Assembly (NCBI GenBank): GCA_902826395.1
Contig: CADEER010000004.1
Location: 3,574-67,573, forward strand
Source of the DNA: an uncultured bacterium
GTDB taxonomy: Bacteria > Desulfobacterota > Binatia > HRBIN30 > CADEER01
DNA: 64,000 nucleotides
Direction of reading: 5' to 3'
A program made the position numbers and the translations under genes. This document shows, piece by piece, positions 5,060-42,943 of the stretch (position 1 is its first letter; every line of letters starts with the position of its first letter). Under the pieces are notes generated by a model. It did not search any database, was not told the DNA's origin, and worked only from the letters and a program-made list of their open reading frames with translations.

Positions 5060-6328
5060 ATGACATACCGGGAGATGAGCGGCGCCGCCCTCGACGGCGA
5101 GCTGCGTGCCGTCCGACAGCGCCACCAGGAGCTGTCGACTCGCGGTCTGTCGCTCGACATGACGCGCGGCAAACCGTGCGCCGAGCAACTCGACCTCGCG
5201 AACGGAATCCTCTCTTGCGTCGGTCCGGCCGAGATCGCGGCCGCGAGCAGCGACCCGCGCAACTATGGCGGTCTCGACGGCTTACCGGAGGCGAAGCGGC
5301 TGTTCGCCGACTACATGGGAGTCGGTAACGACGAGATCCTCGTCGCCGGTAACTCGAGCCTGGCGTTGATGTACGACTCGCTCGTGCGCGCCTGGCTATT
5401 CGGCGTGCCCGGCTCGCCACGGCCATGGGGCAAGCTCGACAAGGTCAAGTTCGTTTGCCCGAGCCCGGGCTACGACCGCCACTTCGCGATTTGCGAAAGT
5501 CTCGGCATCGAAATGATCGTCGTCGACATGAACGGCGATGGGCCGGATATGGACGCCGTCGAACGCCTCACCGCCGCCGACGACTCCATCAAAGGCATTT
5601 GGTGCGTGCCGCGGTACAGCAATCCCACCGGAGTGACGTTCTCAGCCACGGTCGTCGACCGCCTTTCGTCGATGCGCGCCGCACCCGACTTCCGCATCTA
5701 CTGGGACGATGCATATGCGGTGCATCATCTCGACGACGATCCTCAGCCTCTGCCCAGCATCGTCGACGCGTGCAAGAAGGCTGGCAATCCGGATCGGCCA
5801 CTGCTGTTCGGCTCGACGTCGAAGATCTCGTTTGCCGGTGCCGGCGTAGCGGTCATGGCGGCGAGCACGGCCAATCTGAAGGATCAGATGCGCCACATGG
5901 GGATGCAGACGATCGGCCCCGACAAGATCAATCAGCTTCGACACGTGCGCTTCTTCCGCGACATGGCAGGGATCGAGGCGCACATGAAGAAGCACGCGGC
6001 GATCATTCGGCCGAAGTTCGCATCGGTCCGTGCCTCGTTCGAGGCAAATGTCTCCGGTACCGGCATCGCAGCGCTCAGCCAGCCGCGGGGCGGCTACTTC
6101 TTCAGCATGGACGGCCTGCCCGGTACCGCTGCTCGCACCGTGGCCCTCGCTGCCGAAGCGGGAGTCAAGCTCACTCCCGCCGGCTCGACGTTCCCGTTGG
6201 GCCGCGATCCACAAGACCGCAACCTTCGCCTCGCCCCGACCTTGCCCGGTCTCCCCGAGATCGAGCAGGCCATGGAGATCATCTGCAACAGCGTCCGCCT
6301 CGCAGCGCTCGAGAAGCTGTGCGCGTGA
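5060..6328 (+). CDS. PLP-dependent aminotransferase (class I/II fold)
   Basis: Carries a fold-type I aminotransferase signature with a candidate PLP-lysine in STSKISFAGAG. It is 422 aa. Confidence 0.6.
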   Translation: MTYREMSGAALDGELRAVRQRHQELSTRGLSLDMTRGKPCAEQLDLANGILSCVGPAEIAAASSDPRNYGGLDGLPEAKRLFADYMGVGNDEILVAGNSSLALMYDSLVRAWLFGVPGSPRPWGKLDKVKFVCPSPGYDRHFAICESLGIEMIVVDMNGDGPDMDAVERLTAADDSIKGIWCVPRYSNPTGVTFSATVVDRLSSMRAAPDFRIYWDDAYAVHHLDDDPQPLPSIVDACKKAGNPDRPLLFGSTSKISFAGAGVAVMAASTANLKDQMRHMGMQTIGPDKINQLRHVRFFRDMAGIEAHMKKHAAIIRPKFASVRASFEANVSGTGIAALSQPRGGYFFSMDGLPGTAARTVALAAEAGVKLTPAGSTFPLGRDPQDRNLRLAPTLPGLPEIEQAMEIICNSVRLAALEKLCA

Positions 6329-6337
6329 GCGCCGACG

Positions 6338-7738
6338 TCAGCTATTGAGGGGGCGGTTCGCGGCGGCGAGAACCGACTCGTGACTCATCTCGGACAGAGT
6401 CGGGTGCGGAAAGATCGCCTCGATGAGGTCGATATCGCGGGCCTCGAGAGTCCGGGCGATCGAGAAGCCGTGGATCAGCTCGGTAACACCTGTGCCGATC
6501 ATGTGGGCGCCCAACAGCTCGCCCGTCGCGGCGTTGACGACGGTCTTCACCATTCCCGCCTTGTCGTCGATCGCTAGCGCCATGCCGTTCGCCTGAAACG
6601 GAAATCTGCCGATCCGCACATCCAAGCCAGCAGCGCGCGCTGCCGCTTCGGTCATGCCGACGCTGGCGACCGGTGGTCGGGAAAAGGTGCAGGCCGGCAC
6701 CCGGCTGACGTCCAGCGGTCGAACATGCTCCAAGCCGGCGATGTGTTCGACACAAACAACGCCCTCATGGCTCGCCTTGTGCGCCAGCCACGGCGGGCCT
6801 GCCACGTCGCCGATCGCATAGATCCCGGGCTCGGCGGTGGCACTGAAGTCGCCCACCACGATATGGCCGCGCTCGACGGCAACCCGGGTGGTTTCCAACC
6901 CGAGGTTCTCGACGTTGCCGGCGATTCCCACTGCAACGAGGATCCGCTCGACCGACACCGGCGATTCCTGCCCCTTGCCGAGATCGATGACGGCTACCAG
7001 GCCGTCGTTGCCGTCCGGCTTCACCGAGCCGATTGCGGCGCTGGTGTGGATATCGATGCCGCGCTTTTCGAGCGCCTTCCTGGCGAGGTCCGAGATCTCC
7101 TCGTCCTCTTGCGGCAGAATGCGCTCCGCCATCTCGACGATCGTGACCGCGCATCCGAGATCGGCGTAGAAGCTGGCGAACTCGACCCCGATCGCGCCGG
7201 CACCGATCACCAACAGGCTTGCCGGCAGCGTCTTGGGAACCATCGCTTCCCTGTATGTGACGATACGCTCGCCGTCCGGCTCGATGCCGGGCAATGCGCG
7301 AGCCCGCGCTCCAGTCGCGACGATGATGTTTGCCGCACTCAGCTCGATGTCGCCATCCTGGGCAGCGACGCGCACCGCGCGCGGCCCGGTCAGCCGTGCC
7401 GTTCCTGAAATGACGTCCACCTCATTCTTCTTCATCAGGTACGCCACACCCTTCGAGAGACGCTCGGCAATCTGTCGCGACCGCTTCACCAGCTTGGCGA
7501 GGTCGACCTCGACGCCTCCGGCGCTGAGACCGAAGACGGCCAGGTTCTCGACCTGGTGCTTGACCTCCGCGGCATGCAGCAACGCCTTGGTCGGAATGCA
7601 TCCCCAATTCAGACACACGCCACCGAGGCGATCGCGCTCGACGACGGCGCTGCGCAACCCGAGCTGGCTGGCGCGAATCGCCGCCGTATAGCCGCCCGGA
7701 CCGCCGCCGATGACGATCAGATCGTAGCTGTCAGCCAT
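6338..7738 (-). CDS. lpdA: dihydrolipoyl dehydrogenase
   Basis: Has the FAD motif DLIVIGGGPGGY and the redox disulfide GGVCLNWGCIPTK. It is 466 aa. Confidence 0.9.
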   Translation of the reverse strand: MADSYDLIVIGGGPGGYTAAIRASQLGLRSAVVERDRLGGVCLNWGCIPTKALLHAAEVKHQVENLAVFGLSAGGVEVDLAKLVKRSRQIAERLSKGVAYLMKKNEVDVISGTARLTGPRAVRVAAQDGDIELSAANIIVATGARARALPGIEPDGERIVTYREAMVPKTLPASLLVIGAGAIGVEFASFYADLGCAVTIVEMAERILPQEDEEISDLARKALEKRGIDIHTSAAIGSVKPDGNDGLVAVIDLGKGQESPVSVERILVAVGIAGNVENLGLETTRVAVERGHIVVGDFSATAEPGIYAIGDVAGPPWLAHKASHEGVVCVEHIAGLEHVRPLDVSRVPACTFSRPPVASVGMTEAAARAAGLDVRIGRFPFQANGMALAIDDKAGMVKTVVNAATGELLGAHMIGTGVTELIHGFSIARTLEARDIDLIEAIFPHPTLSEMSHESVLAAANRPLNS

Positions 7739-27299: not shown

Positions 27300-27415
<116 letters not shown>

Positions 27416-27552: not shown

Positions 27553-27638
<86 letters not shown>

Positions 27639-31522: not shown

Positions 31523-31954
31523 ATGTCGACGACATACACGGGACCGCTGCCAGTACCTACTCCGGAATCGCGCCCATTCTGGGACGCGGCGAAGCAACAC
31601 CGGCTTTCGCTTCCCTACTGCGAGAGCTGTAAGCGCTCGTTCTTCTATCCACGGCCATTCTGCCCTTTCTGCTTCGGCGAAGATGTTTCGTGGCGCGATT
31701 CCTGTGGGCGCGGGACGTTGATTACCTTCGTCATCAACCATCGTCCGCCGCGAAGCTTTCCGAACCAGGATCCGCTCGTCATCGGCATCGTCGAGCTCGC
31801 CGAAGGGCCGCGGCTGATGTCGCAGATCGTCGGGGTCGAGCCCTCGCCGGACCATGTCGTCTGCGACATGCCGGTAGAAGTCGTTTTCGACGACGTCACC
31901 GCCGAGGTTACCCTTCCCAAGTTCCGACCGACGAACAGGGCGACGCCGCTATGA
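31523..31954 (+). CDS. Zn-ribbon OB-fold protein (DUF35 family), partner of thiolase-like enzymes
   Basis: Zn-ribbon CESC...CPFC followed by an OB-fold. Its stop overlaps the start of the downstream thiolase-like gene (ATGA). Confidence 0.7.
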   Translation: MSTTYTGPLPVPTPESRPFWDAAKQHRLSLPYCESCKRSFFYPRPFCPFCFGEDVSWRDSCGRGTLITFVINHRPPRSFPNQDPLVIGIVELAEGPRLMSQIVGVEPSPDHVVCDMPVEVVFDDVTAEVTLPKFRPTNRATPL

Positions 31955-33123
31955 GCGGCGCCAGCTCAGCGACCATGCCGCTGCGAGCACGCGCCGCGAT
32001 CGTCGGCGTCGGTGAGTCGGACCAGATCGGTCGACTGGCGGACAAGTCGGCGCAGCAACTCCACATGGAGGCAGCGCGCAATGCGCTCGCCGACGCTGGC
32101 CTCGGTCCCGGCGATGTCGATGCGGTATTCACGTCCGGACGCAACATGGCAAACGAGGTTCCCGAGTATCTCGGCATCAAGCCGCGCTTCGTCGGCGGCA
32201 CTCAGGTCGGCGGCTGCTCATTCCTGGTTCACGTCGAGCACGCGATGGCGGCGATCGCGGCGGGAGTCTGTTCGGTTGCGCTGATCACACACGGAGAGAG
32301 CGGGTACTCGCGCATCGGCATGCCCCGCCAGCGGTGGGGCGACGACTCGGTAAACAACCAGTTCGAGATTCCCTACGGAGCAGGCGGCCCGGTCATTGGC
32401 TACGGGTTGGCGGCGACGCGACACATGCACGAGTACGGCACGACCAGCGAGCAGCTCGCGGAGGTTGCTGTCGCCGCACGCGCGTGGGCAACGCTCAACC
32501 CGCGCGCCTTCTCCCGCAACCCTCTTTCGATCGGCGACGTGCTCTCCTCGCGCCTGATCGCCTGGCCGTTGCATCTTCTCGATTGCTGCCTGGTGACCGA
32601 CGCCGGCGGCGCCGTTGTATTGACGTCAGCCGAGCGGTCGCGCGATCTTCCCGCGAAGCCGATCTACGTACTGGGGGCAGGCACGTCGCTCACTCATCAG
32701 ATGGTGAGCCAGATGCCGAACTTCGATCGCTGGGACGCGGCAGAGCGATCCGGCGCGGCCGCTTTCGCAATGGCGGGCGTCTCCCCCCGCGACATCGATG
32801 TCGCCGAGATCTACGACGCATTCACCATCGTGCCCCTGCTGGCGCTAGAGGCGCTGGGATTCTGCGGGCGCGGTGAAAGCGGCGCCTTCGTCACTGGAGG
32901 GCGGATTGCGCCCGGTGGCGAGTTCCCAATGAACACCAACGGCGGCGGGCTCTCGTATACCCACACTGGCATGTACGGAATCTTCCTCATCGTCGAAGCC
33001 GTCCGGCAGCTGCGTGGTCAATCCGGCGACGCTCAGGTCAATGGTGCAGAGCTGGCGCTCTGCCACGGCACTGGCGGCGAATGGAGCTCTGCGGCTACGC
33101 TCATCCTATCGACCCACGATTGA
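31951..33123 (+). CDS. thiolase-like protein (SCP-x / non-specific lipid-transfer-protein type acetyl-CoA C-acyltransferase)
   Basis: Thiolase fold with the N-terminal AAIVGVGESDQIGRL Cys-less 'thiolase-like' signature and a C-terminal HGTGGE. Uses the internal ATG at 31951 of track ORF 31690..33123. The DUF35-thiolase pairing is conserved. Confidence 0.7.
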   Translation: MSGASSATMPLRARAAIVGVGESDQIGRLADKSAQQLHMEAARNALADAGLGPGDVDAVFTSGRNMANEVPEYLGIKPRFVGGTQVGGCSFLVHVEHAMAAIAAGVCSVALITHGESGYSRIGMPRQRWGDDSVNNQFEIPYGAGGPVIGYGLAATRHMHEYGTTSEQLAEVAVAARAWATLNPRAFSRNPLSIGDVLSSRLIAWPLHLLDCCLVTDAGGAVVLTSAERSRDLPAKPIYVLGAGTSLTHQMVSQMPNFDRWDAAERSGAAAFAMAGVSPRDIDVAEIYDAFTIVPLLALEALGFCGRGESGAFVTGGRIAPGGEFPMNTNGGGLSYTHTGMYGIFLIVEAVRQLRGQSGDAQVNGAELALCHGTGGEWSSAATLILSTHD

Positions 33124-33143: not shown

Positions 33144-33440
33144 ATGAGCCGCAGTGACACCAATGGCTTTCGCCTCTTCTTGCGTCTCGGCGACAGCGTC
33201 ACGCATCGCGACCATCGCGAGTGGGGCGAAGGACGCGTCACCGAAGAGATGACGTCGACCGTCCCCGGCGGCACGTGTCTGGTGCGCATCATTTTCCAGG
33301 ATGGCCGCCAGCGCACCTTCAACAACGACCTCGATTCGCAGATGTGCTGCTACTACCTGGGCCTGCGAAAGGTCTGGGATCCGGAAGAGGAGGACCGCCC
33401 GCGCGTCGTGCAGCGTCGCCGCATCAGCTACAGTCGATGA
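33144..33440 (+). CDS. hypothetical small protein (possibly DUF3553-like)
   Basis: 98 aa. It has a GDxVxHxxxxEWGEGRV core and native codon usage. Confidence 0.35.
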   Translation: MSRSDTNGFRLFLRLGDSVTHRDHREWGEGRVTEEMTSTVPGGTCLVRIIFQDGRQRTFNNDLDSQMCCYYLGLRKVWDPEEEDRPRVVQRRRISYSR

Positions 33441-33486: not shown

Positions 33487-34083
33487 TCAGACGCCGGCGC
33501 GATCGGCCTCCCAGGCGCGGATCGCCTCGGGAGAGAGATACTGCGCGATGTAGTCCTTGAATGCGCGCAGCGCGCGCTTGCGGTCCTTGAACAGCTCTTC
33601 CTTCACCCATTCGCCCTGAACCCAACAGTCGAACGAGGGCTCTCTGGTCAGCGCCAACTCGAGCACTCGCTCGCCAACCGGAGTGCCCGTAACGAGCAAT
33701 CGCACGCTCCGACCGGAATCGATGAAGGCGCCGCGCGCATAGCCGGGTAAATCGACGGCGCTGCGAATCTGCTCCGCTTCCTTTGACGGCAAGGGCCGGT
33801 CGACCAGTTGAACGTAGCCCCAATGCCCGAGATCGGGATTGGCCTCGACGAGGAGCTTCTGATTTAGGTCGGTGAGGCGGGCGCGTGCAGCCTCCTGCTC
33901 GAATCCTTGTGCGGCCCGATAGAACTTCTGGCCGACCGGCGGCGCCGCGACCGGAGCGACGACCGGCGCTGCCTTGACGTTGTCTTTGCCACCGAAGTCG
34001 ACCCACCAGCGGTCCTTCACCGCCTTGTCGTCACCGCCTTCCGGCTGCTCGGCCGGGCTGTCCTTATCGTCCGGCGTGCTCAT
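33487..34083 (-). CDS. hypothetical protein, translationally coupled partner of the SprT-like gene
   Basis: An internal ATG (plus 'cat' 34081-34083) overlaps the stop of the upstream gene as ATGA. The product, MSTPDDKDSPAEQPEGGDDKAVKDRWWVDFGGKDN...SPEAIRAWEADRAGV (199 aa), has no domain I recognise. The N-terminal 190 aa of the 388-aa track ORF is out-of-frame overlap with the SprT-like gene and is probably spurious. Confidence 0.45.
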   Translation of the reverse strand: MSTPDDKDSPAEQPEGGDDKAVKDRWWVDFGGKDNVKAAPVVAPVAAPPVGQKFYRAAQGFEQEAARARLTDLNQKLLVEANPDLGHWGYVQLVDRPLPSKEAEQIRSAVDLPGYARGAFIDSGRSVRLLVTGTPVGERVLELALTREPSFDCWVQGEWVKEELFKDRKRALRAFKDYIAQYLSPEAIRAWEADRAGV

Positions 34084-34509
34084 GCAGCGCGCCGGTTGCC
34101 GTTGCGACTCATGATCGCACGCGGCCCCTTGCGTTCGCCCGCCACGACGCTGCGCTCCATCTTCTCTGCGAAGATGTCCGCTTTGGCCTCTGCGTCCGTC
34201 CACAGAATGTAGTGCCCCATCTCGTGGAAGACCGTGTTGATCCACTGCCGCTCGGAGTTGTACTTGCGGCCGCGTTTCCAGTTCTCCGGATGGACCAGGC
34301 AGATGGTACCGTCCTCGAACGTCCTCCCGGCCGTGCGACCCCAATCGAGGTACTCGAACCACACGACGCACGGCCTCTTCAGCCGGTAGAACTTGCAGAT
34401 CTCGGACACCGCCTTGTTGAACCGCGACACCTTGTGCTCGCGAAAGAACTCGCTGAGCAGCCGGTGAATCGACTTTCTTTCCCGCAGCGGTGGAACGGCC
34501 ATCCGCATG
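34080..34509 (-). CDS. SprT-like zinc metalloprotease domain protein (HExxH), short form
   Basis: GRTAGRTFEDGTICLVHPENWKRGRKYNSERQWINTVFHEMGHYILW aligns with the E. coli SprT core [43 protein letters not shown]. Likely start is MRMAVPPL with a GGGGGTG RBS. The track ORF starts at a TTG at 34622. Confidence 0.5.
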
Positions 34510-34715
34510 ATCTGTGTCACCCCCGGAGGCTTCGAAGTGGGCAGGACGATAGAGGGGCCTCCCCGCCTTGTCAACGTGCCCGGAGCCCTCCGATCCCACT
34601 TCCACTCCAAGAATTTTCTCAATTATTTCATAAGGTTGTCGAATCCGCCTCAATGTTTCTCGCGATCGCGTCCCGACCTGGTCCCGAGCTTTTTCCTTCT
34701 GTATGATCGGCCGCC

Positions 34716-36080: not shown

Positions 36081-39000
36081 TCAGAACCGCGCCCCGATGC
36101 TGATCGAGAATTCGCCGAATGACTCCTGGGGCCGACTGCCGTCCGCCAGCGTGCGAGTGCGCCGGTCGAGCTTGATGCCGTAGTCGACACTGATCGGGCC
36201 GATCGGCGTGACATAGCGCAGGCCGAGGCCGGCGGCGGTGCGAAAGTTGTCCAACGCCACGTCCGCATCGCGGATCCGAGTCTCCGGATCGGCCGGATCA
36301 CCCGCCCGACAGTCGGCGTCGCAGCGCGTGAGGTAGTTGGCACCTCCGTCGACGAACACGACCAACCCGAGCTCCCAGATCAGCGGGATACGCACCTCCG
36401 CCTTGGTGACAATGGCGAGGTCGCCGCCAACCTCGCTTCCGTCACCGTCATAGGGCCCGAGGCTGTTGACGGCGAAGCCGCGCACCGATTCGCCACCACC
36501 CACGAAATAGCGATTGCGGATCGGCACAATCGGATCGCCGTCCAGGCTGCGCACCCAACCAACGCGCACCGAGTACACGAAGCCCCACTTTCTCCATAGC
36601 GGGATCAGATGGGTGTGTTGGCCGACCACCTCGAACAGATCGACGTCGGACACACCCGGAACGGCATAGCGCACACGCAGCGACTCGAAGAGACCCGATC
36701 GCGGATCGAACACGCTGTCGCGCCCGTCGTAGACGACAAAAGGACTCAAGGATGTGGTCCATGCCTGCTGCTCGTCGCGCTCGCGGAACGGCACAGGCAA
36801 CACGTCGAAGACGCGAGCGAACTCGACCTGCAGATCGGCGCCGACGTGGTACTTGTCAAAAATCCGGCGACTCAGTCCCGTCGCAACGCTGCCGCGCTCC
36901 ACGTTGTACTGATCGACGGCACGCGTATTGCGCTCGCCAAGCAGATTGAGCTGGTACGTCAATGGCCCGTCGAAGAGACGCGGCTCCACGAACTCGCTGG
37001 TCAGGAGGTACTGGGTTGGTTCCTTGCTGTCGCCGGGATCGAAGCCAACCTGACCGCGCAACCTCAGCCTCTGGGCTCTGCGATTGACGTTGGCAAAACT
37101 GATCTCGCCAAAGCCGGTGAGTCCCTGACGGGTATCGTAACCCGCGCCGTAAGCAATTCTGCCCGGTGCTCGCGGAACGACCTTGACCGCGAGGCGTCGC
37201 TCACCCGTACCCGGGGTCGGCAACGCAGCGACCTCCTCCGTCGAATCCCCATCGTCATCATCATCATCGGCAGCAACGGCCGTGTTCTCGCTTTCGTCCT
37301 CCAGGTCGATTGGGGCAATGGAAACGTTGCGGAAGACGCCCGCGTCGTAGATCCGCTGCTGTGCGTTGCCCAACTGCTCGACGTCGACGATTGCGCCGGC
37401 ACTGAACGGCAGGTCGCGTGTAATCACGACATAACGCGTGTCCGAGTTTCCTTGGATCAATATGTCGCTGATTCGGTGCTGCGGGCCCGGTGCGACGTCC
37501 CAAAGGACTTGAGCAGCAACATCGGAGGCATCCGGCTGGCGTTTGATATCGACCTTGACCCGCGCGTCGAAATAGCCCTTGCGCCGCAACTCGGACTCCA
37601 GTCTCGCGCGCGCCTCGCGCAAGGCCACGATGTCGAGCGGCTCACCCATCGCGCCAGCGCCGACGACCACACCGAGGCCGGCAAGGCCTTCCGTCCCCAG
37701 CACATCGCGTACATACGTCCGCGGCCCCTCTTCGACCGTGAATCGCACTCTAGCCACACGCTCCTTCTCGTCGAGCTCGACACTGCTCGATACCTTTGCC
37801 GACTCGAAGCCGCCTCGCACGTAGCGCACGCGGATCCTCTCGCGGTCTTCCGCCAGCACTTCGTCGACGACGCGCGGCGGGCGAACCGCCCCAAGGACCC
37901 CGCCGCGTCCGGTCTCCACTACTTCGCGGAGCGACTCTTCGCCGATGGCCCGATTGCCGGTGATCTCGACGGCCGCGATCTTGAACCGGTCGCCCTCGAC
38001 GACGCTGTAGATGATGTCTCCACCGTCGGACTCGAAGGTCACCGTTGCCTTGTAGAACCCGCGCCGCTGATACTCAGCCTCCATCTTCTTCGCTACCTGT
38101 CGCCAGGTGTTGCGACTGAGGAAGATTCGATCGTAGATCTCGTCGCGCGGCAGGAGCTCTTCGTCGTCGACCGACTCGTTCCCGTTGATGACGATCGCTT
38201 GGCGCCTGCCGACTGCCACCGTCGCGACGAGCCGTCCCGCCACCGCATCGACTTGCTCCCAAGTCACGTCTACCTGCGAGTCGAAGTACCCTTCCTCGCG
38301 CAATCGCCGAACAATCTGGCGGCGAGTCTTGCGCGACAGATCACGGACCTCAGGTGTGCCGATCAACTCACGCAGCACCTCCTCCGCAACCCGCGCCGCT
38401 TCCGCGTCGGTTCCTTCCGCGGGGCGAAGCTCGACCTCAGTCACGATCCGCGGCAGGCCGCTCTCGACTTCAATATCGATCTCGGTGCCGCTCTCCTCGT
38501 GGCGCACCTGCGTCGAGACGCTCGCCGACGCATAGCCGGCGGCGTGGTAGCGCTGCAGAATCCGCTTGGTAGCACGGTCGAGCAGCTCGGGCTCGTACAC
38601 GTTTCCGGGCCGCAGCGGGATCAGCCGTCGAACCTCCTGCTCGGTCGGAGCCGGAGCGCGATCGGGGTTGCCCGTCAGCCAACGCCAACTGGCGCGAACG
38701 ACGGCGAACGGCGGCAACTCGGCACCAGACAAGTTGACATGGGTGAGGCGGGGTCTGAGTCCGAGATCGACCACGAGGACACACTGCGTCGGCTCATCCG
38801 ACGGCGACCCTTCAGGCACCAGGCTCAGCTCGACGAATCGAAAGACCTGCGTCTCGAGCAACCTGCTCGCAACGTGCCCCGCGCGCTCGGTGCTCCATAC
38901 ACCGGGCGCATCGATCCCGGCCAGGGCGCGCAAGCCGTCTTCGTCGATCCAACCATCGGCCACAAATCGAGTCGACGTGAACCGAGCCGGCAAATCGCAC

Positions 39001-39104
39001 GGGGCTGCAACCGCAACGCCGGAGTGATTCGCGGCCAGGATTGCGACCGCCGCGACGACGGCTCGTGCTCCGCGAGACGCACGTGGTGTCAATGCAGAGC
39101 GCAT
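36081..39104 (-). CDS. Omp85-family outer-membrane protein (BamA/TamA-like; POTRA repeats plus C-terminal 16-strand barrel), ~1007 aa
   Basis: Signal peptide MRSALTPRASRGARAVVAAVAILA (internal Met, 2 nt after the tamB stop), POTRA-like repeats, an acidic insert DDDDDDGDSTEE, and a C-terminal 'bacterial surface antigen' barrel ending ...FSISIGARF. Confidence 0.7.
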   Translation of the reverse strand: MRSALTPRASRGARAVVAAVAILAANHSGVAVAAPCDLPARFTSTRFVADGWIDEDGLRALAGIDAPGVWSTERAGHVASRLLETQVFRFVELSLVPEGSPSDEPTQCVLVVDLGLRPRLTHVNLSGAELPPFAVVRASWRWLTGNPDRAPAPTEQEVRRLIPLRPGNVYEPELLDRATKRILQRYHAAGYASASVSTQVRHEESGTEIDIEVESGLPRIVTEVELRPAEGTDAEAARVAEEVLRELIGTPEVRDLSRKTRRQIVRRLREEGYFDSQVDVTWEQVDAVAGRLVATVAVGRRQAIVINGNESVDDEELLPRDEIYDRIFLSRNTWRQVAKKMEAEYQRRGFYKATVTFESDGGDIIYSVVEGDRFKIAAVEITGNRAIGEESLREVVETGRGGVLGAVRPPRVVDEVLAEDRERIRVRYVRGGFESAKVSSSVELDEKERVARVRFTVEEGPRTYVRDVLGTEGLAGLGVVVGAGAMGEPLDIVALREARARLESELRRKGYFDARVKVDIKRQPDASDVAAQVLWDVAPGPQHRISDILIQGNSDTRYVVITRDLPFSAGAIVDVEQLGNAQQRIYDAGVFRNVSIAPIDLEDESENTAVAADDDDDDGDSTEEVAALPTPGTGERRLAVKVVPRAPGRIAYGAGYDTRQGLTGFGEISFANVNRRAQRLRLRGQVGFDPGDSKEPTQYLLTSEFVEPRLFDGPLTYQLNLLGERNTRAVDQYNVERGSVATGLSRRIFDKYHVGADLQVEFARVFDVLPVPFRERDEQQAWTTSLSPFVVYDGRDSVFDPRSGLFESLRVRYAVPGVSDVDLFEVVGQHTHLIPLWRKWGFVYSVRVGWVRSLDGDPIVPIRNRYFVGGGESVRGFAVNSLGPYDGDGSEVGGDLAIVTKAEVRIPLIWELGLVVFVDGGANYLTRCDADCRAGDPADPETRIRDADVALDNFRTAAGLGLRYVTPIGPISVDYGIKLDRRTRTLADGSRPQESFGEFSISIGARF

Positions 39105-39106
39105 CC

Positions 39107-42100
39107 TCACTCGGATCCCCGGCATTCGCACCACGTCAGCCAGCTCGGCAGGCCCCAGAACTCGAACCGTTGCGAGACCTCGCCACCGAAGGCGCCTTCT
39201 TGCGTATGGGTCTGACTCTCCCAGCGCAGTACCGTTGAGACCTGATGCGTCAACGCGTAGCTCGCCTCGACCAGGGTCTGCGGCTGAACGCCGAAGCTCT
39301 GGCCCAACCACGCCGAAAGATCCGGTGTGATGCTCTTGCCGACGCGCAGTTGCGGTTCGAACTGGCCCGTCGAGGGCGAATACCCGGGCCGGATCTCGAT
39401 CTGATCGAAGGGCAACACTTCACGCGCTTCGCCGGCGAGGAAGCCGCCGACGCGCCCGCCGGCGAGACCGGCCAGACGATCGATGGCTGGATCCGATTGG
39501 CCCCCCTCTCTCACCTGCGCCACGGTCTTGCCGAAAGCGATGAGCGCGGCGATATCGGTCTGACTCAATCCGTCCTCGGATCCGAGATGGACGCGGAAGT
39601 CGCCCGTCGTCCCGGTTACCCGCACCGTGACCCGATAAGGGATACCGTCCGCCTCGATCAGGCTCTCGGCGGTGAAATCGATCTGTGCCTCGCCCGGCAG
39701 ATCACGCCGGAACGTGAGGACCCCGTTCTCAATGTCGAACTGGCGGCCGCGCAACGAGATGCTGCCGTCGATGACTTCGATCCTGCCGCGCGGCGACGGC
39801 TTGCGCGGTGTCCCGCGGATTCGCAGGTCGGTCCGCGCTTCCAGCCGGGCGATGTTGTTCTCGATGTAGAGGCCGTCGCGCGCCACGACTCGCAAGTCGA
39901 GCTTGAGGGGCGGCCTGTCGCTTGCAATCCGCTGCGGCGGCGCCATCGCCCGATCGAACGAAGGGATGAGGTCCTGGTACTCGAGATTGCGGTCGTACAG
40001 AAGGTTGTCGATCGCAATTCTCCCGGCGAGCAGCGGCGGTGCATCCCACGCACCGGCCAGCGTCCCGTCGCCCGATAGGATCATCTCGAGGTCGCGGATC
40101 GGTTCGACGCCCACGTCCGCCAGCGACCAGCGCAAGTCCGGTCCGGAATCGACGCCGACTTCGCCGCCGATGCTGAAGCGGCCACCGCCGATCTCGCCGG
40201 TGAGTGCATCGATGTGCGCTCGACTCCCAGAGAATCGGATCGAGGCATCTATTTGAGTCGCCGGCGGCGCGCCGCTGATCTCGACGCCGCCCGCACGAAT
40301 CGCCGCCTTGCCATTGATTCCAACGAGCGCGCCTGCGGTTTTCACGTCGACTTCCAGCTCGAGTGCTCCCTTGGCCTCCTCCACCGCGGGAGTCAGGGAC
40401 GCAGCCCACTCGAGGTCCACGACGCCGCCAATCACCAGCGTTGCTGGGCGGCTGATACCGATTCCCCCGTTGAGGGTCAGCGTCGTCGCACCGCCGCGCA
40501 GCTCGGCGGGGTCGATCAGCAACGCGCCACTATCCAGTCTTGCGCGCACTGGCCGATCGCTGCGCAGCAGCTCGTCGCCGCTGGCGATCTTCAGACCCTC
40601 CACTTCGATTTGCGCGCTTGCCTCGGCCAGTGCCGCGAGGCGTCCCGTCATCGACAGCACGCCGCGCGACGAGACCCGGATCTCCTCCCCGGCAACCGCG
40701 ACCGCCGGCATATCCTCCTGCTCCCAACCGACGCGAACCTCGAACGGAAACCCGCTCCGTCCCTGGATATCCGCCGCCAGTGTCATCGCGCCGTCGAGCA
40801 ACGTCCCTTCGACCCGCCATTCGCCTGCGTTACCGGCGCCGCTTATCTCCGAGTCGCCGAACGCCTCGTCGCCGATGCGCACGTCGGTTGCCGCGAATCG
40901 CAGCGTCCCATCCGCGTTGCGGCCGGCGGCAACTAGCCTCAGCTCGCCGGCCAGGCGACCGGTGATCTGATGATCCCCGCCGTCGACCAACTCCTCGATT
41001 GGCCAATCGTCGATGCTGACCGCTACCTCGCGGACTCCCGTGCCGCGCCCGGCGACCGTTGCAGCAGCACGAAGCTGCGTTTCGTCGCTCACCTGGGCGT
41101 CGACGCGCCACGCTCCGGCTCGAGCCTCCGCTGCGAGGTCGACCTTCCCCAGAGTGACGGCCTCGACCCGAGCGGTGTCGACGCCGACTCGAGCGGTCGC
41201 CTCCAGCGCTGACCACCGTCCGTTTACCGAGACGTCACCACCGACATCGCCCGCGATGTCGGGGATGCTCCACCCGACACTTCGGCGGAGACTCTCGAGG
41301 ATCGGTTGAAGCGGCAGCGCGGCGAGACGCAGCGTCCACTGGTTCGTCACAGCACCCGAGAAAGCGACCTTGCCGCCGCCACTCAGCTCGCCACCACCCG
41401 CTCGCAGGGAGAACGACTCCACCGTCGCTTCGCGCGTCGAAACCTGGCCTCGAACGCGCAACTCCGCCGGCGTGCCGTCCGCCAGACGCAGACCGTCGCT
41501 GGCGACTACCAACGACGCACTCGGCGCATCCTCTGTCCCGGAGAGTGTCGCGTCGGCCACGAAGCCGCCTCGGGCGGGCAGCGCTCTCCGATATGCGAGT
41601 GCATTCAACACGTCCTCGATCGCGGCAACCCGAACCGTCGCGGCACCCGACAGCGCCCCCGTATCGTCGCGCACGAGGCGCATGGTCATGCGACTGTCGG
41701 CATCGACAACGACCTCGGCCGATGCCGAAATCTTCTTCCCGTCGGACGCCACCGTCGCCTCGATCGGAATCGACGGCACGCCGATCCCATCGATGCGCCC
41801 TCTCCCCTCGAGGCGGATGTCCAACTCGTCGAGGTCGATGGTCAGGTCGGCATCGCCCGTCGACTCGCGACTGGCGACGGCCGCTTCGCCCTGCAAGTTG
41901 AGGAGCCGATCGAGCTTGACATCTCGCCATCCGACCGTGCCCGCGAGGCGCAGGTTACTCTCGTCCAGCCGCAGCGCGCCGACCAATCTCCCGGCCGGCC
42001 ACACTGCCTCGATGTCATCGGCGCTCCATACGCCGGCCCGGCGGGCAATCTCCGCGTTGAGACTTTCCAGTTGTACACCGCGAAAGGAGGGCTCGCCGAC

Positions 42101-42943
42101 ACGAGCGGTGGCGCGCACCACCGGATCGCCAAACGGACCTTCGATCCGGAGATCGATCGACGCCCTGCCGTCGACTTCGACTTCGGAGGCCGCGGCGAAC
42201 TCGACCACCTCCCGCAGTTGCCCTGCCAGCTGAATATTGGTCGGTGCGATGCCCTGATCGATCGCTCCCGGCGACGAATCAGCCGTGGCCGCCTGGATCG
42301 TCAACGCCGGGCCGCTCGCCTGCAAGACCTCGGTGGAGAGTAACTCGCCATTCCAATGCGCAGCCGCCCGTACCGTGTCCACCACCGTGACTCGATCGCG
42401 CCACTGCAGCGCGACGCCTTCGGCTGTCGCTCCCAGGTCCGCGCCGCCGAGCGTCTGCAAGGCGACGTCCCCGTCCAGTCGCTCCACGACGACTTGGCGT
42501 CCCTCCGGCAGCAGCAAGCGACCGCGCCGCACTTCAACGGCGAGATCGATCGGTACCGGGAGTCCTCTTCCTCCGCTCGGCTCCGCCTGCGCACGGGTTG
42601 AGCTCGAAGGACGAGAAAGATCGATCTCGATGTCGCTTATCTCGGCGCGCCCGACCAGCTTGCCGGCAGCAAGCGACCGCCCGACATCGATACGAACGCT
42701 CGCGTCGCCAGCCCGAAACAAGGCCGGCGAGCCGACCCGCAGCCCGTTGAGACGCAGCCAGGGCGCAATCGACCGCATCTCCAGCGACTCGATCTCGACA
42801 TCCTCGCCGATCGCGCCGGCAACGCGCTCGACCAGATCGTCCTTCATTCGCTCGACGACGAACGGCAGCAGGATCAGAATCGCCATCGCGACAACGACCG
42901 CCGCAAGGCTGAGCAGCATCGCGATTCGAAGTAGGCGCCTCAC
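39107..42943 (-). CDS. tamB: TamB/AsmA-family translocation-and-assembly module protein (N-terminal TM anchor, long beta-rich periplasmic domain, C-terminal DUF490)
   Basis: 1278 aa. It has an N-terminal membrane anchor (MRRLLRIAMLLSLAAVVVAMAILILLPFVV) and sits immediately upstream of the Omp85 gene. Confidence 0.65.
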   Translation of the reverse strand: MRRLLRIAMLLSLAAVVVAMAILILLPFVVERMKDDLVERVAGAIGEDVEIESLEMRSIAPWLRLNGLRVGSPALFRAGDASVRIDVGRSLAAGKLVGRAEISDIEIDLSRPSSSTRAQAEPSGGRGLPVPIDLAVEVRRGRLLLPEGRQVVVERLDGDVALQTLGGADLGATAEGVALQWRDRVTVVDTVRAAAHWNGELLSTEVLQASGPALTIQAATADSSPGAIDQGIAPTNIQLAGQLREVVEFAAASEVEVDGRASIDLRIEGPFGDPVVRATARVGEPSFRGVQLESLNAEIARRAGVWSADDIEAVWPAGRLVGALRLDESNLRLAGTVGWRDVKLDRLLNLQGEAAVASRESTGDADLTIDLDELDIRLEGRGRIDGIGVPSIPIEATVASDGKKISASAEVVVDADSRMTMRLVRDDTGALSGAATVRVAAIEDVLNALAYRRALPARGGFVADATLSGTEDAPSASLVVASDGLRLADGTPAELRVRGQVSTREATVESFSLRAGGGELSGGGKVAFSGAVTNQWTLRLAALPLQPILESLRRSVGWSIPDIAGDVGGDVSVNGRWSALEATARVGVDTARVEAVTLGKVDLAAEARAGAWRVDAQVSDETQLRAAATVAGRGTGVREVAVSIDDWPIEELVDGGDHQITGRLAGELRLVAAGRNADGTLRFAATDVRIGDEAFGDSEISGAGNAGEWRVEGTLLDGAMTLAADIQGRSGFPFEVRVGWEQEDMPAVAVAGEEIRVSSRGVLSMTGRLAALAEASAQIEVEGLKIASGDELLRSDRPVRARLDSGALLIDPAELRGGATTLTLNGGIGISRPATLVIGGVVDLEWAASLTPAVEEAKGALELEVDVKTAGALVGINGKAAIRAGGVEISGAPPATQIDASIRFSGSRAHIDALTGEIGGGRFSIGGEVGVDSGPDLRWSLADVGVEPIRDLEMILSGDGTLAGAWDAPPLLAGRIAIDNLLYDRNLEYQDLIPSFDRAMAPPQRIASDRPPLKLDLRVVARDGLYIENNIARLEARTDLRIRGTPRKPSPRGRIEVIDGSISLRGRQFDIENGVLTFRRDLPGEAQIDFTAESLIEADGIPYRVTVRVTGTTGDFRVHLGSEDGLSQTDIAALIAFGKTVAQVREGGQSDPAIDRLAGLAGGRVGGFLAGEAREVLPFDQIEIRPGYSPSTGQFEPQLRVGKSITPDLSAWLGQSFGVQPQTLVEASYALTHQVSTVLRWESQTHTQEGAFGGEVSQRFEFWGLPSWLTWCECRGSE

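Follow-up and report, generated by a model that had tools for sequence, protein, structure and literature searches.

A conserved two-gene operon of Candidatus Binatia encoding a putative minimal zincin and a partner protein

Organization and conservation of the A-B locus

The window analysed here is a stretch of 64,000 nucleotides (nt) from an uncultured soil bacterium of the class Binatia (contig CADEER010000004.1, assembly GCA_902826395.1), and two adjacent genes on its reverse strand, named A and B, are the subject of this study. Gene A encodes a small, strongly basic protein with the peptidase motif HExxH and gene B a protein of an orphan family. Together they make up an operon of two genes that is chromosomal and vertically inherited in Candidatus Binatia. 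The features of the operon, with protein lengths in amino acids (aa), are the following:

34546..34574 (-), sigma-70-type promoter of the A-B operon: -35 box TTGACA, 17-nt spacer, -10 box TATCGT
34509..34545 (-), short 5' leader carrying a ribosome-binding site of the GGAG type, GGGGGTGA, some 8 nt 5' of the ATG
34080..34508 (-), gene A: ATG codons at 34508 and 34502, TGA stop at 34082..34080; 142 aa, or 140 aa from 34502
34080..34083 (-), ATGA overlap of the A stop codon and the B start codon, a sequence arrangement that points to translational coupling
33487..34083 (-), gene B: ATG at 34083, stop at 33489..33487; 198 aa

An initial annotation of the locus had described a two-gene unit with an ATGA overlap, and this arrangement was found at 34083..34080 on the reverse strand and is conserved and tightly juxtaposed in relatives. 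The start of B at 34083 stood as well, while both proteins proved one residue shorter than had been given (A begins at 34508 with 142 aa instead of at 34509 with 143 aa, and B has 198 instead of 199 aa). That annotation had also rightly remarked that the mechanical list of open reading frames (ORFs) over-extends both frames, to 33487..34653 (388 aa) and 34080..34622 (180 aa).

The promoter TTGACA-17-TATCGT showed 10 of 12 matches in a consensus scan, and both hexamers and the GGAG ribosome-binding site were kept when 26 upstream regions of related loci with the lgt-type surroundings of the window were aligned. Besides these elements only an AT-rich upstream block was conserved; a palindromic, LexA-type or other operator was sought in the aligned promoters and no conserved one was seen. 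The conserved promoter and ribosome-binding site favour the short start of A, at 34508 or 34502, and speak against the starts of the longer ORFs. Independent gene calling on two other contigs gave an A protein of 140 aa (start equivalent to 34502) and a B protein of 198 aa with a 4-nt overlap. The NCBI gene call for A (P0001, 164 aa) begins within the conserved -35 box, and the start of the mechanical 180-aa ORF also lies upstream of or inside this box (34509..34622), the real start of A being 34508 or 34502. An Rfam scan of the A-B region returned no RNA elements.

Homologues of A were found in more than 1,000 clusters at 90% identity and those of B in 163 clusters, the named ones being metagenome-assembled genomes of Candidatus Binatia. 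On GTDB contigs, with one genome per species, A is encoded in 272 species, and the genome-locus comparisons below were performed on the best 80 of these. Among these 80 loci the identity to the A protein of the window ranged from 56 to 84%, no assembly was present twice, and the labels were mostly Binatia or the old 'Deltaproteobacteria', the remainder being generic or other. Judged from these homologues, the lineage is Candidatus Binatia and not the Myxococcota, in which relatives had initially been placed. Searches for plasmid, phage and IMG/VR relatives of the pair were all empty, ruling out an origin from a mobile element. The G+C content at third codon positions was 0.85 (A) and 0.78 (B), with values of 0.75-0.82 in the neighbouring genes. 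These values lie within or near the range of the neighbours and agree with the native codon usage proposed for both genes. Rfam also detected a bacterial small SRP RNA and a tRNA in the window, at 27306..27404 (-) and 27554..27638 (-), which fits a core chromosomal region.

In 41 of the best 80 loci B is located directly downstream of A, as tblastn and the B profile agree. The other 39 were B-less; one of them (L067) ends too near A to be judged, leaving 38, all of which group as one clade when A is placed in a neighbour-joining tree. For the reciprocal test, 80 metagenome loci were retrieved by the B profile, of which 71 could be tested because they extend at least 300 nt upstream of B. A was present immediately upstream and on the same strand in all 71. 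An ATGA overlap by itself is commonplace in bacteria, and it is the linkage of the pair, not the overlap, that exceeds chance. A and B meet in an ATGA overlap in the window and its 16 closest relatives, and most other loci have a gap of 0-21 nt. Two loci have an opposite-strand gene for a short-chain dehydrogenase-like (SDR) protein between A and B (L071, 6567-7514 (-); L157, 3123-4124 (-)); in this sub-lineage A and B stay neighbours without being translationally coupled. The pair had been called obligately co-translated, which is too strong in view of the 38 loci of the best 80 that keep A without B and of the two with an inserted gene. Its conservation in relatives holds from the side of B, while from the side of A the partner is gone from one clade. 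The dependence is one-sided, of B on A and not the reverse, and a single loss of B is the most likely history.

In four loci (L029, 3176-3829; L031, 6001-6603; L039, 1068-1730; L047, 6001-6603) the A frame has no stop for approximately 80-100 codons past the core and overlaps the 5' region of B out of frame for approximately 170-190 nt, giving a long and very basic A tail. An A-B fusion or a programmed frameshift was considered for these loci and rejected, as A merely lacks a stop in an out-of-frame overlap and no evidence of fusion was obtained.

The pair is kept together in at least three different genomic contexts. In the window-type context the order is tlpA-lgt, A-B, a 98-aa ORF and a thiolase gene, the other contexts have unrelated surroundings, and in a third group of A-B loci (L022, L031, L044 and others) neither lgt nor lspA is nearby. 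Almost all B-less loci share one arrangement, consisting of ubiD, aldolase and acyltransferase genes followed by a divergent A-ileS-lspA. In this clade (L023, L026, L035 and about 35 others) A, at approximately 6001-6380, lies 40-60 nt upstream of ileS (approximately 6420), with lspA at approximately 9330, and is divergent from the genes for an LpxL-like acyltransferase, a class II aldolase and a UbiD-like protein. In both major arrangements A adjoins a lipoprotein-maturation gene, lgt here and lspA in the B-less clade.

From its position, A could be taken for an envelope or lipoprotein-maturation helper, acting for example in signal-peptide or precursor turnover, with B as a lineage-specific add-on. 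In the window A is divergent from lgt-tlpA and near TamA/TamB-like genes, and in about 35 loci the B-less A stands directly upstream of ileS-lspA and beside the LpxL-like acyltransferase. Such a role appears quite unlikely: neither A nor B has a signal peptide or membrane segment, the third group of A-B loci lies away from both lgt and lspA, and the ileS-lspA operon is so widespread that the adjacency may be positional.

The protein encoded by gene A

The motif FHEMGHYILW, on which the initial annotation was based, is present in A. An alignment of 32 diverse members contained 49 invariant columns, including H95, E96, H99, the loop H73-P-E75-N-W, D105 and E107, with C38 as the only invariant cysteine. 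The pattern HE[MLFI][GA]H, the HPENW loop, D105 and E107 were intact in all 153 A-containing loci, the B-less clade included. No histidine is conserved after H99, and the only candidates for a third zinc ligand are D105, E107, H73 and E75. In the AlphaFold2 (AF2) prediction the HExxH motif lies inside a helix of residues 86-126, and the C-terminus is a basic, disordered tail. The protein is strongly basic throughout the family (pI 10-11.5, net charge +12 to +14). Only three positions of the core differ between the B-containing and B-less classes, and loci with B have the longer tail (median 24 versus 9 aa).

A and B could also be a toxin-immunity, toxin-antitoxin or anti-phage defence pair, with A as a toxic protease and B as the immunity protein that neutralises it. 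This is very improbable. The pair is vertically inherited, with no assembly carrying two copies among the best 80, it has native composition and conserved core chromosomal synteny, its distribution is limited to one class, and searches of plasmids, phages and viral contigs gave no copies. In addition, A is extremely conserved, and a whole clade keeps it without B and with its catalytic residues intact, which would be unexpected of an unneutralised toxin.

A search with the SprT-like profile (PF10263) gave a score of 15.8 bits for A of the window (E 0.013), restricted to residues 82-105 and below the Pfam gathering threshold of 25.6 bits. SprT-like matches were obtained for 26 of the 32 aligned members, all sub-threshold (best E 7e-4), and equally weak Matrixin matches for 27 of 32; as the two are equally common, the signal is that of a generic HExxH helix. 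Other weak matches were MPTase-PolyVal (E 0.13) and PADLOC capP (E 0.0045), and in scans of Pfam, NCBIfam, PADLOC and PHROGs nothing was found above threshold for A, NCBIfam giving no match at all. Comparison of A to PDB sequences, by profile and by single sequence, gave spurious matches only, and no SprT or WLM structure was recovered by the A-family profile. The predicted fold appears closest to the SprT/WLM proteases Spartan and Wss1, at marginal scores. The SprT-like core that had been proposed for A is thus borne out as to its invariant HExxH, and not as to the PF10263 match. We conclude that A represents a new family of minimal zincins that stands nearest to the SprT/WLM group and is not demonstrably part of it.

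Like the SprT-like/WLM zincins (Spartan/SPRTN, Wss1 and SprT; PF10263), A carries HExxH on the active-site helix. It differs from them in a match that stays below the gathering threshold and is limited to the motif helix, in lacking a conserved third downstream histidine and a zinc-binding/Zn-ribbon DNA-binding subdomain, and in having no ubiquitin, SUMO or p97 interaction modules. The minigluzincins (proabylysin, projannalysin, selecase) are archaeal and self-inhibited by their own C-terminal tail. A has no sequence relationship with them, and in contrast to them is Binatia-confined, far more basic and accompanied by a separate partner gene. The ImmA/IrrE (M78) and CapP pairs likewise join a small metalloprotease gene closely to a second gene that is acted upon. 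Membership of the M78 family, which the initial annotation had suggested checking and which includes CapP, was not borne out when judged by a Pfam or PADLOC profile match together with a paired HTH repressor substrate; the capP match of A is faint (E 0.0045).

A might also not be a peptidase at all, but a YbeY-type metal-dependent nuclease or RNA-processing factor, or a non-catalytic nucleic-acid binder, with B associated with the ribosome or RNA. We regard this as quite unlikely, in that the HExxH motif of A, with its invariant glutamate, is that of peptidases and not the HxxxHxxxxxH motif of the YbeY family, and the fold scores are all marginal.

The protein encoded by gene B

No family could be assigned to B, in agreement with the initial annotation. 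Scans of Pfam, NCBIfam, PADLOC and PHROG gave no match, comparison to PDB sequences gave spurious matches only, and a Foldseek search of the PDB returned nothing significant. An exhaustive B-profile search of 1.84 billion representative proteins yielded 101 clusters, all of the same narrow family or fragments of it, some with long basic N-terminal extensions. A repeat protein (P0328) that came up as a distant relative was dismissed as a spurious match. A protein of 200 aa (P0279) consists of an ExbD/TolR-like N-terminus joined to the C-terminal half of B, and is probably an assembly or gene-calling chimera. No literature was found on the A/B family or on Binatia proteases.

According to the AF2 model, residues 1-50 of B form a disordered arm and residues 60-198 a confident core (pLDDT >90) in which helices pack against an antiparallel sheet of six strands. 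This predicted fold is a common alpha/beta sandwich, for which no homology can be claimed. The arm contains the invariant residues R25-W26-W27 within a motif R-W-W-(V)-(D/E), and synonymous variation among the RWW codons shows that selection acts on the motif at the protein level. The pI of B is variable (5.0-9.6). PsiB, the plasmid SOS inhibitor that binds RecA (PDB 3nct), was compared to B and showed 12% identity, no Pfam match and no recovery by Foldseek. PsiB belongs to plasmid leading regions, whereas B is chromosomal, Binatia-confined and always beside A, and B has the 50-residue disordered arm with the RWW motif in addition.

Proposed role of the pair and its neighbourhood

In the reading that we favour, with a probability of about 0.4, the A-B operon encodes a housekeeping-type, probably nucleic-acid-associated metallopeptidase (A) and a co-translated accessory subunit (B). 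A would be active in the cytoplasm as a zinc metallopeptidase built on a stripped-down zincin fold, in which H95 and H99 would bind zinc, E96 would act as the catalytic base and D105 or E107, or else H73 or E75, may provide the third ligand. The net charge of A and its near-invariance across the class suggest a conserved polyanionic partner, and A may work on or beside DNA, RNA or the ribosome. B would be produced in step with A through termination-reinitiation and would dock on it, most likely through the disordered RWW arm, the basic C-terminal tail of A or both. In the resulting putative complex, B would modulate or direct proteolysis as an adaptor, regulator, dedicated substrate or pseudo-substrate.

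Several observations weigh against this reading. In the AF2 model residues 86-126 run as a single straight helix, so that D105 would not lie on the zinc face. Because A falls below every curated family threshold, peptidase activity is argued from the motif and the fold. A is kept without B across the whole B-less clade, and its persistence in such a large clade means that B is dispensable for its core role. The SDR insertions show that the coupling of A and B is not universal, and the varying charge of B means that a simple electrostatic pairing with A is not conserved.

The pair may alternatively be a DNA-protein-crosslink or DNA-damage module, in which A would be a DNA-activated SprT/Wss1-type protease trimming proteins stuck on DNA and B a PsiB-like protein contacting RecA or single-stranded DNA (ssDNA). 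The charge of A is the only hint of DNA-dependent proteolysis, and an indirect one, and no result bears on crosslink repair itself. The neighbourhoods inspected showed no repair genes and the promoter alignment no conserved operator, and on balance such a module is unlikely. Slightly less likely again is a bacterial counterpart of the eukaryotic crosslink-protease system, in which a minimal, Binatia-universal A would be joined by a PsiB-like B that couples it to RecA/ssDNA or, via the RWW arm, gates a protease that would otherwise be promiscuous. What speaks for the alternatives considered in this study is marginal fold scores or gene adjacency.

The surroundings of the operon include further genes of the lineage. 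The 98-aa ORF at 33144..33440 (+) is convergent on B, has 58-82% identity in most lgt-type loci and was called as a gene on independent contigs. With no Pfam or PHROG match, it is another Binatia-specific conserved hypothetical protein. At 31690..33123 (+) the mechanical ORF of 477 aa is over-extended, the thiolase-like gene having approximately 390 aa and a start near 31951. A 143-aa gene of the zf-ChsH2/OB-fold (DUF35) type, the usual partner of SCP-x-type thiolases, precedes it on related contigs. Two very large ORFs downstream of tlpA, at 36081..39311 (-) and 39107..42943 (-) with 1,076 and 1,278 aa, look like TamA/BamA-type and TamB-type outer-membrane assembly genes, judging by the sequence of the first. 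The two mechanical ORFs overlap by approximately 200 nt, and the downstream gene (36081..39311) has therefore probably been given too early a start.

Bacterial genomes commonly encode small HExxH proteins beside uncharacterised genes, and only a demonstration of DNA-dependent proteolysis or of a defined regulatory mechanism would make the pair notable. Its practical reach is restricted by the uncultured lineage and the absence of a tie to a known pathway. A small zincin with a dedicated partner is a familiar theme, found here in an uncultured class. If the favoured reading of A as a metallopeptidase with B as its accessory subunit is true, A would constitute an unannotated minimal zincin family of approximately 125 core residues without a Pfam or NCBIfam model, and B an orphan family whose existence depends on A. 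If instead the crosslink module were real, it would be a dedicated bacterial crosslink-protease system with its own regulator. The clades with and without B, with an unchanged A core, offer a natural experiment on how very small proteases are targeted or restrained, and the wide occurrence of A in Binatia, in 272 species genomes, together with its exceptional conservation points to a core cellular role.
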